DNA from: Alphaproteobacteria bacterium
GTDB taxonomy: Bacteria > Pseudomonadota > Alphaproteobacteria > Rickettsiales > SXRF01
Direction of reading: 5' to 3'
Assembly: GCA_050249355.1 (NCBI GenBank)
Contig: JBFWQQ010000003.1
Span: 1-51,197 of the forward strand
Length of the DNA stretch: 51,197 nucleotides
Below, one piece after another: positions 1,278 to 49,927 of the stretch (position 1 is its first letter; every line of letters begins with the position of its first letter). The position numbers and the translations under genes are program-made. A model generated the notes under the pieces. It was not told the origin of the DNA, ran no database searches, and saw only the letters and a list, made by a program, of their open reading frames with translations.

Positions 1278-2090
1278 ATGAAAAAATCGTTCTTTGCCGC
1301 ACTCATACTGGTTTTGGCAAGCCTTCCCGCGCATGCCAATACCGAGCGTAAACGCAATGCCGAAAAGCCCGATTATGATACGGCTGCCCGCGCACTGGCG
1401 TTCGAGATGGCGCTTATCCCTGAGAGTGGCGTGGAAATCGGTCAGCCGGTGAATGTAATGCTCAAAATGGTCGACACCAAAAGTGGGCTGGCGGTGCCGG
1501 CTTCATTCCTGCGTGAAACGGGTGACCATATCATGCACCTGACCCTGACAGACGGCACCCTCACCGATGTGCAGCACCTCCATCCCTCGCCCACCGAAAC
1601 CGATGGCATCTACCGTTTCAGCTTCACCCCCCGTATGCCGGGTGGCTACCGTGGCTGGGCGCATGTGGTGTCGGTGGAAGGCAAGCAGCAGTTCGTGATG
1701 GGCGACATCGGCACCGTGCGCGGCGGTGGCCTAACCAAAGAAGTTATCCTGCAAACACAGGCCGGCGGCTATGATTTCAAACTGGAATTTGATGACACCC
1801 CAAAACTGAACAACAGCCGTGATGCAAAACTCGTAATCGCCAGAAACGGTGCGGCTGTAGTGCCGGAACAGATTTATATCATCGGCATCCATGAAGACCT
1901 GCGCACGATACTGAAAACCAAGTTCGAAGAAGGTTCCAAACTGGATTTTGAAATTAAGCCGGAAGAACCAGGTTTTGTGAAGCTGTTCATCTATGCCACC
2001 ATTGGCAACCAACCGCCTGTTGAAGTATCGCTGGGTTTCCACGTTACCGGCAAGAAAGAATCAGACTTCAAGTTCAAGAGTATTTTCTAA
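1278..2090 (+). CDS. Secreted hypothetical protein with His motif, possibly metal-binding
   Basis: Sec signal MKKSFFAALILVLASLPAHA; motif HIMHLTLTDGTLTDVQHLHP; 270-aa ORF; AGGGA upstream. Confidence 0.75.
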   Translation: MKKSFFAALILVLASLPAHANTERKRNAEKPDYDTAARALAFEMALIPESGVEIGQPVNVMLKMVDTKSGLAVPASFLRETGDHIMHLTLTDGTLTDVQHLHPSPTETDGIYRFSFTPRMPGGYRGWAHVVSVEGKQQFVMGDIGTVRGGGLTKEVILQTQAGGYDFKLEFDDTPKLNNSRDAKLVIARNGAAVVPEQIYIIGIHEDLRTILKTKFEEGSKLDFEIKPEEPGFVKLFIYATIGNQPPVEVSLGFHVTGKKESDFKFKSIF

Positions 2091-2154
2091 TTGCCGCCGC
2101 GAAAGCCTACTGACATCGGTTGAGGCGTGCAGATGGCTGACCCGGTTCGCCCAG
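2091..2154 (-). repeat. Degenerate copy of the double-hairpin AGNA repeat family
   Basis: GAAAGCCTACTGAC is shared exactly with 46728-46741, and GGCTGAC follows downstream as in that copy; it fills the gap between convergent genes. Confidence 0.65.
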
Positions 2155-7007: not shown

Positions 7008-7024
7008 CTATGCAGGAACAAAAA

Positions 7025-7100
7025 GGGTGGCCAGTAGGCCGACCCAGCCCTGAGCCAGCTTCATGTGATTTGCAGGAGCAAATCACGGAAGCAATCAAAA
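7025..7100 (+). repeat. Double-hairpin AGNA repeat
   Basis: GGCC-AGTA-GGCC...CAGCCCTGAG...CAT-GTGATTTGC-AGGA-GCAAATCAC; closely similar to 46800-46874 and to the reverse complement of 30686-30758. Confidence 0.9.
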
Positions 7101-15818: not shown

Positions 15819-16808
15819 TCAACCTTTGGCGGCGTGTGTAAGAGCATCCGGTATGGCAGAATGTTTTGCCTGCAGGGCATCTTCTACCAATAATCTTACC
15901 AATTCATTAAAAGATACGCCGGCATGTGCCGCGATCTCCGGTGACAGGGATAGTGCCGTCATGCCGGGTTGGGTATTAATCTCCAGCAGATAGAATGTAT
16001 CGCCGTCATAACGGAAGTCCGAACGGGTCAGGCCACGGCAGCCAAGCGCAACATGTGCGCGCTCGGCCAGCTGCATCACGTGGTCGCGCTCCCTATCGGT
16101 CAGCGGTGCCGGGCACAGATGCTCGGTTTTTCCGTCGGTATATTTGTTGGTGTAGTCGTAAAAGCCTTCCAGCGGGCGAATCTCGGTCACGCCCATCGCC
16201 TTGCCGGACAGCACCGCCACGGTGATCTCCCGGCCGGGAATATATTCCTCTACGAGGAACGTGGCGTGTGATGCGCGGCGTGTGGCGCAAGAGGTTTCCT
16301 GCCCCACGCTCCACACTCCACGCTCCGCTATCTGACTCAATGGACGGCTGTCCTCGGCGGTCACAATCACCACGCCGACACTGGAACCCTCATCCGCCGG
16401 TTTCACCACGAACGGTCGCGGCAACGGATCGCCACCCGAAAGCAGCGCCTCTGCAGTCAGCGTCACCCCGCCCGGACAGCGCAAGCCCGCTGCTTCGAAC
16501 ACACGCTTAGCCATAGGCTTATCCATCGCCACCGCAGATGCCAACACGCCCGAATGGGTGTAGGGAATGCCCATCAGCTCTAGCATGCCTTGTACACAGC
16601 CATCTTCACCAAAGCGGCCATGCAGCGCGTTGAATACTACATCCGGTTTAGCTGCCGCCAGTTTTGCAGCTATATCCGGCGCCACGTCGATCTCGGTCAC
16701 CTTATAGCCGTTGGCACGCAACGCATTGGCACAGGCAGCGCCACTGTTGAGTGAAACCTCACGCTCAGCCGACCAACCGCCTTTGAGTAGTGCCACGTGT
16801 AGTGTCAT
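15819..16808 (-). CDS. ddl: D-alanine--D-alanine ligase (with in-frame heptamer-repeat insertion)
   Basis: GGWSAEREVSL, ALHGRFGEDG, EGSSVGV, EINTQPGMT; start at the ATGA overlap with murB. Confidence 0.97.
   Translation of the reverse strand: MTLHVALLKGGWSAEREVSLNSGAACANALRANGYKVTEIDVAPDIAAKLAAAKPDVVFNALHGRFGEDGCVQGMLELMGIPYTHSGVLASAVAMDKPMAKRVFEAAGLRCPGGVTLTAEALLSGGDPLPRPFVVKPADEGSSVGVVIVTAEDSRPLSQIAERGVWSVGQETSCATRRASHATFLVEEYIPGREITVAVLSGKAMGVTEIRPLEGFYDYTNKYTDGKTEHLCPAPLTDRERDHVMQLAERAHVALGCRGLTRSDFRYDGDTFYLLEINTQPGMTALSLSPEIAAHAGVSFNELVRLLVEDALQAKHSAIPDALTHAAKG
16260..16328. repeat. Inverted heptamer-array element inside ddl
   Basis: CGTGGCG-TGTGATG-CGCGGCG-TGTGGCG ... CCACGCT-CCACACT-CCACGCT; encodes ERGVWSVGQETSCATRRASHAT. 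Confidence 0.7.
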
Positions 16809-17947
16809 GATGATTTTCCTATTCTCTTGATTTCCCATTCCAGTAATATGCCGGTTTTTTCCTGCACACGCTTACGCACTTCCTCGCCAAGATTTTCCAG
16901 ATCGGCGGCAGTGGCATCGCCGGTGTTGATCAGGAAGTTGCAGTGCTGCCCCGACACTTGCGCACCGCCTATTCGTAAGCCCCGACATCCCGCCTGTTCG
17001 ATCAGTTGCCAAGCTTTATGTCCTTCGGGATTCTTGAACGTGCTGCCACCGGTACGCGAACGCACCGGTTGTGTGCCTTCGCGCGCGCTGCTGATCTCGT
17101 TCATACGACTTTGTATGCCTTCCTTATCGCCCGGTATGCCGAACAATAACGCCTGCGTTACCACCGCCCCTTCCGGCAGCGCGCTGTTGCGGTAAACAAA
17201 TCCTAATTCCTTGTTGGTCAGCATGCGAATGATGCCATTGCGCTCCACGATCTGCGCCTGCTTCAGCACATGCGAAATATCCGCGCCGTATGCGCCGGCA
17301 TTCATGCGTACCGCACCGCCAATCGTGCCAGGTATGCCGCACAAAAACTCCAGCCCGGACAGGCCATGCGCACACGCCACAGCCGCTACATGCACATCAA
17401 GTGCGCCGCCGCCTGCAATTATTGTATTGCCTCCGTCATTCGCTTGCTGCTCGCGCCATGAGGCAGGCTGTCCCGCCGCTGGCGGGCCATTTTCATTCAA
17501 TTGCGCATCACAACGCATTCGTTGTGATGCGACGCTGGCGCGGCCCGCTGACCGCGATTCTGCTTCACCGACAGTGATTCCGGCAAACCCTCTACCCAAC
17601 TTAATCACCACGCCATCGATGCCGCCATCGCGCACGATGACATTAGAACCGACCCCCAGCACCGTCACCGGTACATCGTGCGGCAACAGGCGGAAAAACG
17701 CCGCAAGGTCCTGTGCATCTTGCGGGCGGAATACGAACTCGGCCAGTCCACCGACACGGAACCAGTTGGTTTTCGACAGCTCTACCTGCTCGCGGATACG
17801 CGGGCGGAATGTATCGAACCGTGGTTCGTATAATATTTTTGCCCCCGTGAATTGCTTCTGCAAATCTCCTGCGGCGCGCTCAGGGCTGGCACGGCCTGCT
17901 GACCGCGCTTCTTTACCATTATTACTGCCAGCAATAATGGCTATCAT
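16805..17947 (-). CDS. murB: UDP-N-acetylenolpyruvoylglucosamine reductase (with two in-frame repeat insertions)
   Basis: [45 protein letters not shown]; start at the ATGA overlap with murC. Confidence 0.97.
17435..17562 (-). repeat. Composite palindromic insertion in murB
   Basis: GCGGTC-AGCG-GGCCGC head like the AGNA family, followed by the hairpin CGCATCACAACG-AATG-CGTTGTGATGCG and further stem-loops; encodes [42 protein letters not shown]. Confidence 0.8.
17836..17914 (-). repeat. Double-hairpin AGNA repeat in the murB 5' end
   Basis: AAAGAAGCGCGGTCAGCAGGCCG is shared exactly with rluD 35002-35024; encodes [10 protein letters not shown]. Confidence 0.88.
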
Positions 17948-19392
17948 GAAACCGCCTTTTTCTGCGCGTCGGATACGTTGCCTGCCAGCGCATACGCCCA
18001 TTTGGTGATAGACCCGGCGCCGAGACATATCACCATATCGCCCGGCTTGCCCGCCGATGCGATCAGAGATGACAGCGCTTCTTCTTTCTCCAGTCGCAAC
18101 ACGTTGCGGTGGCCCATGCTGCGCAGGCCTTCCACCAGATGCGCCGCGTCAATGCCTGTTATCGGCTCTTCGCCTGCCGGATACACCTCGGCAACGATCA
18201 CGGTGTCGGCATCGTTGAAGCAGGTGCAGAAATCCTTGAACAGGTCACGCAGCCGGGTGTAGCGGTGCGGCTGTACCACGGCGATCACTCCGCCGCCACT
18301 GGGTTTCTGCGCGGCGCGTGCGGCCTTCAGTGCCGCCGCAATTTCCACCGGGTGGTGTGCGTAATCGTCGATGATGGTCATGCCCATCGCTTCGCCCGTG
18401 CGCGTGAAACGGCGCTTCACGCCCTCGAATTTTTCCAGCGCCGCCCGTACCTGGCCGTCGGTGATCTTCAACTCACAACCCACCGCGATCGCCGCCAGTG
18501 CATTGCTCACATTATGCTGGCCAAACATTGGCAGCAATACATCCCGGATGGTGCGCTTTTCGCCCTCACGCAAGCTGACCTCGACATCGAACAGCTGGCC
18601 CTTTTCATGCGGGCGGATGTTGCGTGCGCGCACCGCCGCTTGCGGGTTGGTGCCGTAGCTGACGATACGGCGGTCGGTGATGGTGGCAGACAGCGCCTGC
18701 ACCTCAGGGTGATCAATGCACATCACCGCAAAACCATAGAACGGGATATTGCTTACGAAGGTACGGAAGCCCTCTTTCATGGCATCATAGGAGCCGTAAT
18801 GATCGAGATGTTCCGGGTCCATGTTGGTGACCACGGCAATGGTGGCCGGGAGCCGCGTGAAGCTGCCGTCGGATTCGTCGGCCTCCACTACCATCCATTC
18901 ACCCTTGCCCAGATAGGCATTGGTGCCGCGCGCGTTGATGATGCCGCCGTTGATAACGGTCGGTTGCAATTCCGCGCCTTCCAGTATGGCAGCGGTCAGT
19001 GCGGTGGTAGTTGTTTTTCCGTGCGTCCCGGCAATAGCGATCGACATCTTCAGACGCATCAGCTCGGCCAGCATTTCTGCACGGCGCACAATCGGCAGGC
19101 GCGCCTGCCGGGCAGCCTGCATTTCCGGGTTGTCGGCCTTGATAGCGGATGATTTCACCACTACCGACACACCTTTGATGTGTTCGCCATTGTGTCCCAC
19201 ATGCACGGTGATGCCGAGTTTTTTCAGGCGCTGCGTGTTGTAGCTGTCGGAACTGTCCGATCCCTGCACTTTATAACCGAGGTTGTGCAGCACTTCTGCG
19301 ATACCGCTCATGCCGATACCACCTATACCGACGAAATGGATCAGCCCGACATCCAGTGGTAGACGTGTGGAAATGGGTAGTGAGTTTATCAT
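17944..19392 (-). CDS. murC: UDP-N-acetylmuramate--L-alanine ligase
   Basis: [36 protein letters not shown]. Confidence 0.98.
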
Positions 19393-30685: not shown

Positions 30686-30758
30686 TTTTTGTTTCCGCGA
30701 AATGCTCCTGCATTTCGCATGAAACGCGCTCGAGACTGGGTCGGCCTGCTGGCCTCCC
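30686..30758 (-). repeat. Double-hairpin AGNA repeat
   Basis: Reverse complement GGGAGGCC-AGCA-GGCCGACCCAGTCTCGAG...CAT-GCGAAATGC-AGGA-GCATTTCGC-GGAA. Confidence 0.9.
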
Positions 30759-30774
30759 TTCAAAAATCGCAAAT

Positions 30775-31525: not shown

Positions 31526-31598
31526 GCCGCCCCCGCGAAAATCTGCTGATTTTTACATGGGGCGGAACTCAAGGCTGACTCGCGCTTCTGCGCTCGAC
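31526..31598 (-). repeat. Double-hairpin AGNA repeat
   Basis: Reverse complement GCGC-AGAA-GCGCGAGTCAGCCTTGAG...CAT-GTAAAAATC-AGCA-GATTTTCGC; matches the rluD insertion and 46721-46788. Confidence 0.85.
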
Positions 31599-34323: not shown

Positions 34324-35427
34324 ATGAGCGAAATCCTCACATGCATCGTAGATGAAGAATCCGCCGGACAGAGACTGGATAAGTACCTGTCGGCGCAAAT
34401 CTCCGGCATGTCGCGGGCGCGTCTGCAGGCGCTGATATCCAGCGGGCATGTGACATGTGACAACGCAGCGCTCGCCGATGCCGCAAAGAAAATAAAAACC
34501 GGACAAACCATTCGCATCACGGTGCCCGATGTCGAACCGTCCCACATTGTGGCGCAGGATATTCCGCTGGATATCGTGTACGAAGATAACGACATACTCA
34601 TCATCAACAAACCTGCCGGGCTGACCGTGCACCCTGCCCCCGGCCATCCTGATTCCACGCTGGTCAATGCACTGCTGGCCCATTGCGGTGATTCGCTGTC
34701 GGGCATCGGCGGAGTGGCACGGCCGGGTATCGTGCACCGAATCGACAAGGAAACCAGCGGGCTGCTGGCCGTGGCGAAAAACGATGCCGCGCACGCCGCG
34801 CTGTCGGCACAACTGGCCGACCGCACACTCAAACGCACGTATGCTGCGCTGGTGTGGGGCGTACCTTCACCGCTCAAAGGAAGTATCACCGGCAATATCG
34901 GGCGCAGCGCGCGCGACCGGAAAAAAATGGCGGTGCACCGCAGCGGCGGGAAACCGGCAGTGACACATTATAAAGTATTGCAAACGTTCTTGCTGAAAGA
35001 TAAAGAAGCGCGGTCAGCAGGCCGCGTCAGCCTTGAGCGTCGCCCCATGGAAAATTCAGCAGAATTTTCCGGGGGCAATCATAAAACAGCCCCACCCTAC
35101 CCCTCCCCCCTCAAGGGGGAGGGAATAATAAGCAGAGTGGAATGCCAGCTTGAAACCGGGCGCACCCACCAGATACGTGTGCATTTTGCCCATGCCGGGC
35201 ATGCGCTGGTCGGCGATCCGGTATATGGACAAACCACCGCCTCTCGCCTGAAATCCGCACGTATTGATGCAGATGTTAAAACGGCCCTGCTGGCGTTCGG
35301 GCGGCAGGCGCTGCATGCACACGCGCTGGGCCTGATACACCCGGCAAGCGGCGAAGCAATGGAGTTTACCTGCGAACTGCCGGATGATATGAGAACGCTG
35401 CTTATGGCTCTGGATGCCCGTTCCTAA
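34324..35427 (+). CDS. rluD: 23S rRNA pseudouridine synthase, RluA/RluD family (with in-frame repeat insertion)
   Basis: N-terminal S4 domain, NKPAGLTVHP, HRIDKETSG, ETGRTHQIRVH, RQALHA. Confidence 0.95.
   Translation: MSEILTCIVDEESAGQRLDKYLSAQISGMSRARLQALISSGHVTCDNAALADAAKKIKTGQTIRITVPDVEPSHIVAQDIPLDIVYEDNDILIINKPAGLTVHPAPGHPDSTLVNALLAHCGDSLSGIGGVARPGIVHRIDKETSGLLAVAKNDAAHAALSAQLADRTLKRTYAALVWGVPSPLKGSITGNIGRSARDRKKMAVHRSGGKPAVTHYKVLQTFLLKDKEARSAGRVSLERRPMENSAEFSGGNHKTAPPYPSPLKGEGIISRVECQLETGRTHQIRVHFAHAGHALVGDPVYGQTTASRLKSARIDADVKTALLAFGRQALHAHALGLIHPASGEAMEFTCELPDDMRTLLMALDARS
35002..35078 (+). repeat. Double-hairpin AGNA repeat inside rluD
   Basis: GCGGTC-AGCA-GGCCGC-GTCAGCCTTGAG...CAT-GGAAAATTC-AGCA-GAATTTTCC-GGGGGC. 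Confidence 0.9.
35089..35124 (+). repeat. C-rich hairpin repeat inside rluD
   Basis: GCCCCACCCTACCCCTCCCCCC-TCA-AGGGGGAGGGA; resembles the CCCTCTCCC...GGGAGAGGG intergenic repeats common in alphaproteobacteria. Confidence 0.7.
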
Positions 35428-46720: not shown

Positions 46721-46788
46721 GCCCCGTGAAAGCCTACTGACTTTCACATGGCGCACAACTCACGGCTGACTCGCGCTGCTGCGCTCGC
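46721..46788 (-). repeat. Double-hairpin AGNA repeat
   Basis: Reverse complement GCGC-AGCA-GCGCGAGTCAGCCGTGAG...CAT-GTGAAAGTC-AGTA-GGCTTTCAC-GGGGC. Confidence 0.87.
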
Positions 46789-46799
46789 ATAACAACAAT

Positions 46800-46874
46800 G
46801 GGAGGCCAGCAGGCCGACCAAGCCTTCAGCCCGCTTCATGCGATTTGCAGGAGCAAATCGCGGAAGCAGTAAAA
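46800..46874 (+). repeat. Double-hairpin AGNA repeat
   Basis: GGGAGGCC-AGCA-GGCCGACCAAGCCTTCAG...CAT-GCGATTTGC-AGGA-GCAAATCGC-GGAAGC. Confidence 0.9.
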
Positions 46875-49454: not shown

Positions 49455-49817
49455 GCCAGATGGCTGGATGGCTGCGGGGGTTCGCCCCCGAGGAAAGTCC
49501 GGGCTCCATGTAACACGGTGGCGGGTAACACCCGCCGGGGGCGACCCTAGGGAAAGTGCAACAGAAAGCAAACCGCCCGCAAGGGTAAGGGTGAAAGGGT
49601 GCGGCCAAAGGCGAAAGCCGGAAGCTTAAAGTAAGAGCGCACCGCGCTGCTGGTAACAGCAGTGGCACGGCAAACCCCGCCGGGAGCAAGACCAAATAGG
49701 GACAACATAGGGCGCGTTGCACGCTGGTTGTCCGGGTAGGTCGCTAGAGGTGGCAGGTAACTGCCATCCCAGATGAATGGCCATTCTCGACAGAACCCGG
49801 CTTACAGGCCATCTGGC
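49455..49817 (+). ncRNA. rnpB: RNase P RNA (type A)
   Basis: GAGGAAAGTCCGGGCTCC and CAGAACCCGGCTTA universal motifs; terminal P1 pairing GCCAGATGGC/GCCATCTGGC. Confidence 0.98.
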
Positions 49818-49927
49818 TTTATTAAATTATATCAGAGTGTTACGGGATATCCAAGCTTCATGAAACCGTAACATGCGTTGGTATGGGATAGTTGGTATTA
49901 TTGATGTAAATCAGAATACTAACTACT

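Follow-up and report, generated by a model that had tools for sequence, protein, structure and literature searches.

Two probable in-frame insertions of a dispersed hairpin-forming repeat in the murB gene of an uncultured alphaproteobacterium

Several families of short bacterial repeats are known to lodge within coding genes. Among them are the Rickettsia palindromic elements (RPEs), which measure ~150 bp and of which nearly half are genic in R. conorii, according to the sections of PMC10969869 that concern them. [quoted passage not shown] Here we analyze a comparable situation in murB, the gene for UDP-N-acetylenolpyruvoylglucosamine reductase (EC 1.3.1.98), which belongs to the cell-wall cluster encoded in a 51,197-nucleotide stretch of DNA from an alphaproteobacterium of the order Rickettsiales (contig JBFWQQ010000003.1 of assembly GCA_050249355.1); this entire stretch is hereafter termed the window. 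A prior sequence-only reading had proposed that murB carries two in-frame palindromic insertions, and this is borne out by the open reading frame (ORF), by a direct repeat linking the two segments and by their matches to a repeat family. We use the name R1 for this family, a ~75-nt, two-hairpin dispersed repeat. In our assessment it is very probable that murB has been hit twice by R1, acting as a small non-autonomous hairpin-forming element, and that both insertions are tolerated in the protein.

The murB gene encodes 380 amino acids plus a stop codon (16805-16807) when read from the ATG at 17947, and a single ORF, 16805..18028 on the minus strand, contains both insert peptides in one frame. 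Copy 1 is a near-consensus R1 (nhmmer E 7.9e-17; covariance model 83.6 bits, E 9.2e-22). Copy 2 is a longer variant in which core hairpin 1 is retained, as is the element's 3' end, with two extra hairpins nested inside. It is recovered by nhmmer at 17426-17560 (E 2.3e-3, model positions 3-76, with a 61-nt internal extra) and by the covariance model with filters off as two halves (E 1.1e-4 and 0.015), and its RNA is predicted to fold with -62 kcal/mol over 151 nt. Owing to the similarity between the element's 3' end and the host sequence at this point, the ends of copy 2 are uncertain by ~2 codons (~6 nt). A twin of copy 2 with the same four-hairpin build, the only other such copy, lies at C86:327-462 and is 94% identical over 34 nt and 88% identical over 26 nt. 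The two murB copies are linked to each other by a 28-nt direct repeat of 89% identity (17534-17561 versus 17885-17912), and, as had been noted from the letters, both are read in the same element frame, as ARSAGRAS at residues 14-21 and SRSAGRAS at residues 131-138. The perfect 12-bp stem described earlier is likewise present in copy 2 (Table 1). Both copies comprise whole codons, are free of stops and lie in sense orientation. The repeat kinship of the two murB segments is far beyond chance. The repeat family that the earlier reading saw behind the N-terminal segment is real; its label, "AGNA", is traceable to nothing.

Comparison with relatives and with solved structures delimits the inserts. 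Most MurB homologs are 300-312 residues long, and the excess in the 380-residue protein considered here consists of the 25 and 45 residues derived from the repeats. Among the 40 relatives searched, 38 have a murB match, and in all 38 of these the alignment falls into two pieces that leave query residues 139-168 uncovered. DNA from the same genus provides the empty site, reading V-K-G-D-T where the murB analyzed here has V-G-(45 codons)-G-N-T. The best-matching solved MurB, PDB 9dtk, places 9 residues opposite 53 of the query; this protein and PDB 1hsk belong to MurB type II, whose fold and sequence family the query shares. From the uncovered residues, the same-genus empty site and the gap in 9dtk we place the internal insert at residues 128-172; thus, the previously proposed insert between conserved segments exists, with a length of 45 rather than ~43 residues. 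It is situated in the turn between strands 124-126 and 175-179, in a beta-hairpin of the FAD-binding domain. Copy 1 follows codon 11 in the non-conserved N-terminal tail, and 56 residues precede the conserved LSKTNWF motif as against 26-31 in relatives. Comparison with close orthologs had been set beforehand as a check on the insertion claim, and these orthologs have neither segment. In a search of 5.8 billion proteins the closest other one was 70% identical and 308 residues long, and none other had the double-insert form.

Table 1. Positions of murB, its two R1 copies and associated elements in the window
Feature	Position	Strand	Basis
R1 copy 1, 75 nt = 25 codons, residues 12-36	17839..17913	minus	nhmmer, covariance model
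R1 copy 2, longer form with four hairpins, 135 nt = 45 codons, residues 128-172	~17432..17566	minus	nhmmer, covariance-model halves, empty-site alignment
Hairpin 1 of copy 2, 7-bp stem, AGCG loop, module common with copy 1	17539..17556	minus	sequence, fold, direct repeat
Extra hairpin in copy 2, perfect 12-bp stem 17504-17515 / 17520-17531	17504..17531	minus	inverted repeat 100% complementary; 94% identical to C86 copy
Second extra hairpin in copy 2, CCCGCC / GCGGG	17472..17486	minus	fold and alignment with C86 copy
murB coding sequence	16805..17947	minus	ORF; Pfam FAD_binding_4 (PF01565) and MurB_C (PF02873); NCBIfam NF010480
Shine-Dalgarno-like AAGGCGG (17952-17958) and ATG (17945-17947) overlapping the murC stop TGA (17944-17946) as ATGA	17945..17958	minus	sequence
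Short AT-rich hairpin, 12-nt arms, 92% complementary, codons 3-11, directly upstream of copy 1	17916..17940	minus	inverted repeat
murC, upstream gene	17944..19392	minus	ORF; Pfam Mur_ligase domains

R1 was defined within the assembly of the organism itself (1.91 Mb, 137 contigs, 53.7% G+C), in which four nhmmer rounds starting from the N-terminal segment yielded a 76-position profile and converged on 71 hits at E<=0.01; a covariance model made from a 26-copy alignment returned 72 hits at E<=0.001. The 26 full-length copies in this alignment share two stem-loops with 20 base pairs, 15 of which display compensatory double changes, in a core of ~75 nt with loops of the CAGCAG type. One U-G pair is retained in 24 of the 26 copies and the fold therefore favors one strand, the sense strand. 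Head-to-head pairs of R1 are numerous, and in long variants the two core hairpins enclose additional hairpin modules. Six more copies are found in the window outside long genes, at 7021-7095 (+), 30689-30761 (-), 31529-31596 (-), 2090-2146 (-) and as a head-to-head pair at 46722-46790 (-) and 46797-46869 (+). By crude gene calls, 55 non-genic copies are distributed as 22 tail-tail, 15 head-tail, 14 tail-head and 4 head-head placements. We had considered the GGAGG-like 3' end of R1 as a ribosome-binding site ahead of genes, an idea that was dropped given these counts. Rfam has no family for R1: at the gathering score the window returned RNase P alone, and 17300-18050 gave only chance-level hits (E>3). 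The former is a bacterial class A RNase P RNA at 49456-49820 (+), scoring 302.7 bits.

Counting as genic those copies that lie wholly within long stop-free frames, with host frames confirmed by Pfam domains on either side of the insert or spanning it, we found 18 genic copies among the 71. All 18 are in frame and without stops, they occupy 16 Pfam-confirmed genes, and 16 of them are in sense orientation, a bias that is significant against a null based on open frames (p=0.005). The sense copies reside in 14 genes, namely a rluD-like pseudouridine synthase, recO, coaBC, recJ, ubiD, murB (two copies), lipB, hemF (two copies), hisF, trmD, RNase R, truB, aat and thiL, and the two antisense copies in a Mu-F-like and a hemN-like gene. 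Thus, 13 housekeeping genes besides murB contain in-frame sense R1. All three sense frames are used across these genes, the commonest resulting in peptides of the type K-E-[AG]-R-[SP]-A-G-R-x-S. Genic and non-genic copies do not differ in hairpin strength (minimum free energy per nt -0.424 versus -0.415, Mann-Whitney p=0.76). The rluD-like copy lies in the window at 35003-35079 (+); 22 nt beyond it comes a small C-run/G-run hairpin, 35102-35122 (+), read as PSPLKGEG. A hairpin of this kind also follows R1 in RNase R (C97, ~1783), and a strict pattern detects only 4 in the genome.

As for the enzyme, it retains every one of the 90 columns that a 40-sequence MurB alignment shows as invariant, and the protein scores 385 bits against the NCBIfam MurB equivalog model NF010480, whose cut-off is 259. 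Apart from the repeat copy on C86, its gene is the sole six-frame MurB match of a genome whose completeness is scored at 100%. An AlphaFold2 model has a mean predicted local distance difference test score (pLDDT) of 79.6, with values <50 at residues 1-27, at 133-138 and 140-161, which belong to the internal insert, and at another short stretch, 294-300, and its core overlays solved MurB structures in Foldseek (9dtk, E 2.5e-36, TM-score by target 0.87; 1hsk, TM-score 0.89, root-mean-square deviation 1.9). We infer that the enzyme is active despite the inserts, and that these probably lie on the protein surface. Being made of whole, stop-free sense codons, both copies are most likely translated as part of MurB. 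The events may accordingly be pictured as follows. R1 would have inserted into murB twice, each time as whole sense codons without stops, and both inserts would be transcribed and translated within MurB. Copy 1 would add a hydrophilic stretch of 25 residues after residue 11 of the variable N-terminal tail, and copy 2 an excursion of 45 residues at a beta-hairpin tip of the FAD-binding domain. The enzyme would keep working because both sites tolerate extra length. The inserts would then represent selfish DNA persisting at permissive places in the protein, and might serve as raw material for new loop sequence.

Whether copy 1 belongs to the protein depends on the start codon. The murB gene is part of a cell-wall cluster on the minus strand, murG-murC-murB-ddl-ftsQ, whose other four genes are intact by ORF and Pfam criteria. 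The murC/murB junction, AAAAAGGCGG..TCATGA, recurs in relatives L019, L029 and L034, with a variant in L023, and translates as the peptide EKGG[FIV]M in several relatives. Furthermore, when the 25 codons of copy 1 are removed, the first 11 and the next 15 MurB residues align with L029 MMVAEALSDTG followed by HVLQTSAFDVFRPRLR. On account of this recurrent junction, with its Shine-Dalgarno-like motif and ATGA overlap, and of the first 11 codons aligning with a relative's N-terminus, copy 1 is probably located inside the coding region with the ATG at 17947 in use; the same two features argue against a start downstream of 17836, which would have left copy 1 between genes.

Several observations nevertheless weigh against a double coding insertion of R1. 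One is an in-frame TTG within copy 1 (~17860-17862), with AGGAG two bases upstream; were MurB to start there, or were the product of the ATG irrelevant, most of copy 1 would be leader and copy 2 alone a true coding insert. The N-terminal ~45 residues are non-conserved, with relatives' matches beginning at query residues 17-51, and R1 copies in general are mostly non-genic (53 of 71). A spacing of 2 nt between AGGAG and TTG is, however, poor for bacterial initiation. This TTG is also the sole candidate, there being no in-frame ATG or GTG from copy 1 to the conserved core. Both the ATG, with its overlap of the murC stop, and the Shine-Dalgarno-like motif are retained and recurrent in relatives; copy 1 spans exactly 25 stop-free codons, flanked by codon 11 and by residues alignable with relatives, and translation begun at the ATG would in any case run through it. 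We therefore regard exclusion of copy 1 from the protein as rather unlikely, though it is the most serious of these alternatives. The stand-alone match of copy 2 to the family is weak (the nhmmer E-value given above) and its second core hairpin has decayed. This score is the sole support for viewing the segments as old lineage-specific MurB loops or as an assembly chimera, a notion whose probability is close to nil: same-genus relatives have neither segment, family membership and the C86 twin identify the segments as repeats, and an independent contig assembly agrees base for base. The latter comprises Logan contigs from two DNA runs, which show 0 differences over 17200-18100, although these runs may be the source samples and hence not independent biological support. 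The same contigs contain no empty-site form, with the limit that contigs drop rare variants.

Given the low pLDDT in the inserts, their assignment to a surface loop draws on the strands to either side and on the variable length of this region among relatives rather than on a confident model. In addition, neither terminal inverted repeats nor a clear target duplication were seen in the flanks of the R1 alignment and the empty-site alignments, which were inspected by eye only; no mobilizing enzyme was identified, a parent insertion sequence not having been looked for; and the sequencing runs holding the stretch include no RNA run. A decayed murB, namely a young pseudogene in a cell that has lost cell-wall synthesis or meets the need by other means, might be suspected from the unusual occurrence of two insertions in one essential gene of an uncultured organism. 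Given a frame open over 380 codons, the 90 retained invariant columns, the equivalog score above cut-off, the intact cluster and 13 other housekeeping genes with the same open in-frame pattern, which is unexpected of decay, we consider this very improbable. Comparably improbable is that the hairpins are removed or skipped after transcription, by RNA processing with rejoining or by ribosomal bypass, to produce a mature MurB without them. Bypassing has precedents in T4 gene 60 and the mitochondrial "byp" elements of Magnusiomyces, and the strong hairpins, such as that of copy 2, the U-G pair favoring sense-strand folding and the sense bias of genic copies would all accord with removal or skipping. 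Yet all 18 genic copies consist of whole codons without stops, a constraint that would be pointless if they were skipped, and no stop codon follows a take-off site; moreover, we know of no bacterial system for rejoining mRNA of this kind. Insertion of R1 into the coding sequence at both sites, with translation of the added codons, hence remains by far our favored explanation.

R1 is present in 25 of 41 genomes searched (own included): within the family, 18 of the 24 remaining genomes have it, as do 6 of the 16 from other families of the order, with the highest copy number here (72, the next genome having 50). Across 185,579 species' genomes, an exact 26-nt R1 motif occurs in 61 stretches, 59 of them in metagenome genomes labelled Rickettsiales or Alphaproteobacteria. 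The motif is also found once each in L121 and L150, metagenome genomes labelled Legionellales and Caldilinea, for which binning error or transfer is possible. The trmD insert is shared with G001 only. At the hisF loop that bears R1 here, G002 and G004 have an R1-like element read in a different frame and G015 a different palindrome, while G001 and G003 have no insert.

The MurB turn occupied by copy 2 also carries inserts of 9-28 residues in 6 of 26 parsed relatives: L018 (G004), L019 (G021), L021 (G018), L025 (G006), L026 (G022) and L030 (G011). Marked hairpin folds (-36.8 to -59.8 kcal/mol) are seen in five of them; the insert of 9 residues folds only weakly (-15.5). Searching for R1 with filters off in 21 relatives' murB loci, with eight further loci left out, gave nothing below E 0.37, and the same-loop inserts in other genera are therefore not R1. 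The G021 insert is a member of a different repeat family, with 56 BLAST matches in its own genome, and that of G022 has 12 such matches, the query itself counted; these two, the ones examined in this way, are both dispersed repeats of their respective genomes. The G018 insert has inverted arrays of a CGTGCCT heptad, and the G004 insert a poly-glycine run encoded by GGAGGGG repeats. In ddl (window ~16260-16325, minus strand) we observed a 14-residue in-frame insert within AERGVWSVGQETSCATRRASHATF, encoded by a palindrome of GAGYGTGG-type heptads and absent from same-genus relatives; G010, G011 and G014 have other inserts at that loop.

A more speculative proposal, which we think improbable though worth stating, is that a few specific loops of essential enzymes in this family (the MurB beta-turn, the HisF loop and the Ddl loop) are repeatedly colonized by unrelated hairpin repeats, the insertions being more than tolerated accidents and the elements serving to diversify the loops of core proteins in a directed manner. 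The sense bias (16/18) and the conserved U-G pair would suggest a mechanism or function acting on the transcript or on single-stranded DNA. If so, turn-encoding sequence might for example be targeted, or RNA hairpins within genes might adjust translation or the stability of the mRNA. Regardless of this proposal, the murB insertions would offer a natural map of permissive sites in essential enzymes, with the MurB N-terminus and one beta-turn taking 25-45 extra residues. They would be of relevance to the origin of new protein loops and, as insertion-tolerant sites, to protein engineering; gene callers and orthology pipelines may mishandle such genes.

Considered against the known systems, R1 resembles the REP and BIME elements (repetitive extragenic palindromes and bacterial interspersed mosaic elements), which are mobilized by RAYT (REP-associated tyrosine transposase), in being built of short hairpin modules, in its head-to-head pairs, in tail-tail being its commonest non-genic class and in its strand-specific folding. 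However, REPs are extragenic by name, whereas 18 R1 copies are genic. No match to RAYT (the IS200/IS605-type Y1 transposase, PF01797) was obtained in the 137 contigs of the genome, a control being positive in 6 of 14 known genomes. With the MITEs mentioned at the outset, as far as PMC10969869 describes them in the sections concerned, R1 shares the character of a non-autonomous repeat whose open frames fuse with host genes.

The greatest likeness is to RPEs, which in the same sections of PMC10969869 appear as short dispersed palindromic repeats with open frames, occupying the reading frames of numerous unrelated housekeeping genes, where the protein fold is believed to tolerate them. About a quarter of the R1 copies (18 of 71) are genic, the proportion given there for RPEs in R. 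conorii being nearly half (PMC10969869). On the other hand, the R1 core is ~75 nt rather than ~150 bp. R1 further differs in its modular build with nested extra hairpins and in its host, a 1.9-Mb uncultured alphaproteobacterium of 54% G+C. RPE1, the only RPE family checked by name, yields no match at E<=1 with model TIGR01045 in six frames of the genome and none above cut-off in the 41 genomes, and the insert peptides match no NCBIfam or Pfam model at E<=10. Sub-threshold RPE1 matches of 21-29 bits (maximum 28.9, cut-off 30) occur in G038, G002, G006 and G021, for example at G038:C45:3392-3475, with two more places, and at G002:C28:2107-2211; a distant RPE1-like repeat may exist in this order. 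Our full-text literature search returned nothing on such elements in this lineage. With no RPE1 match and two insertions in the genome's only murB, the data support the earlier suggestion of an independent repeat family inside an essential enzyme. This would carry the Rickettsia theme of coding genes harboring selfish DNA over to environmental alphaproteobacteria of moderate G+C and to a separate family of repeats. R1 is not a member of RPE1: it behaves like an RPE, yet forms a family of its own.
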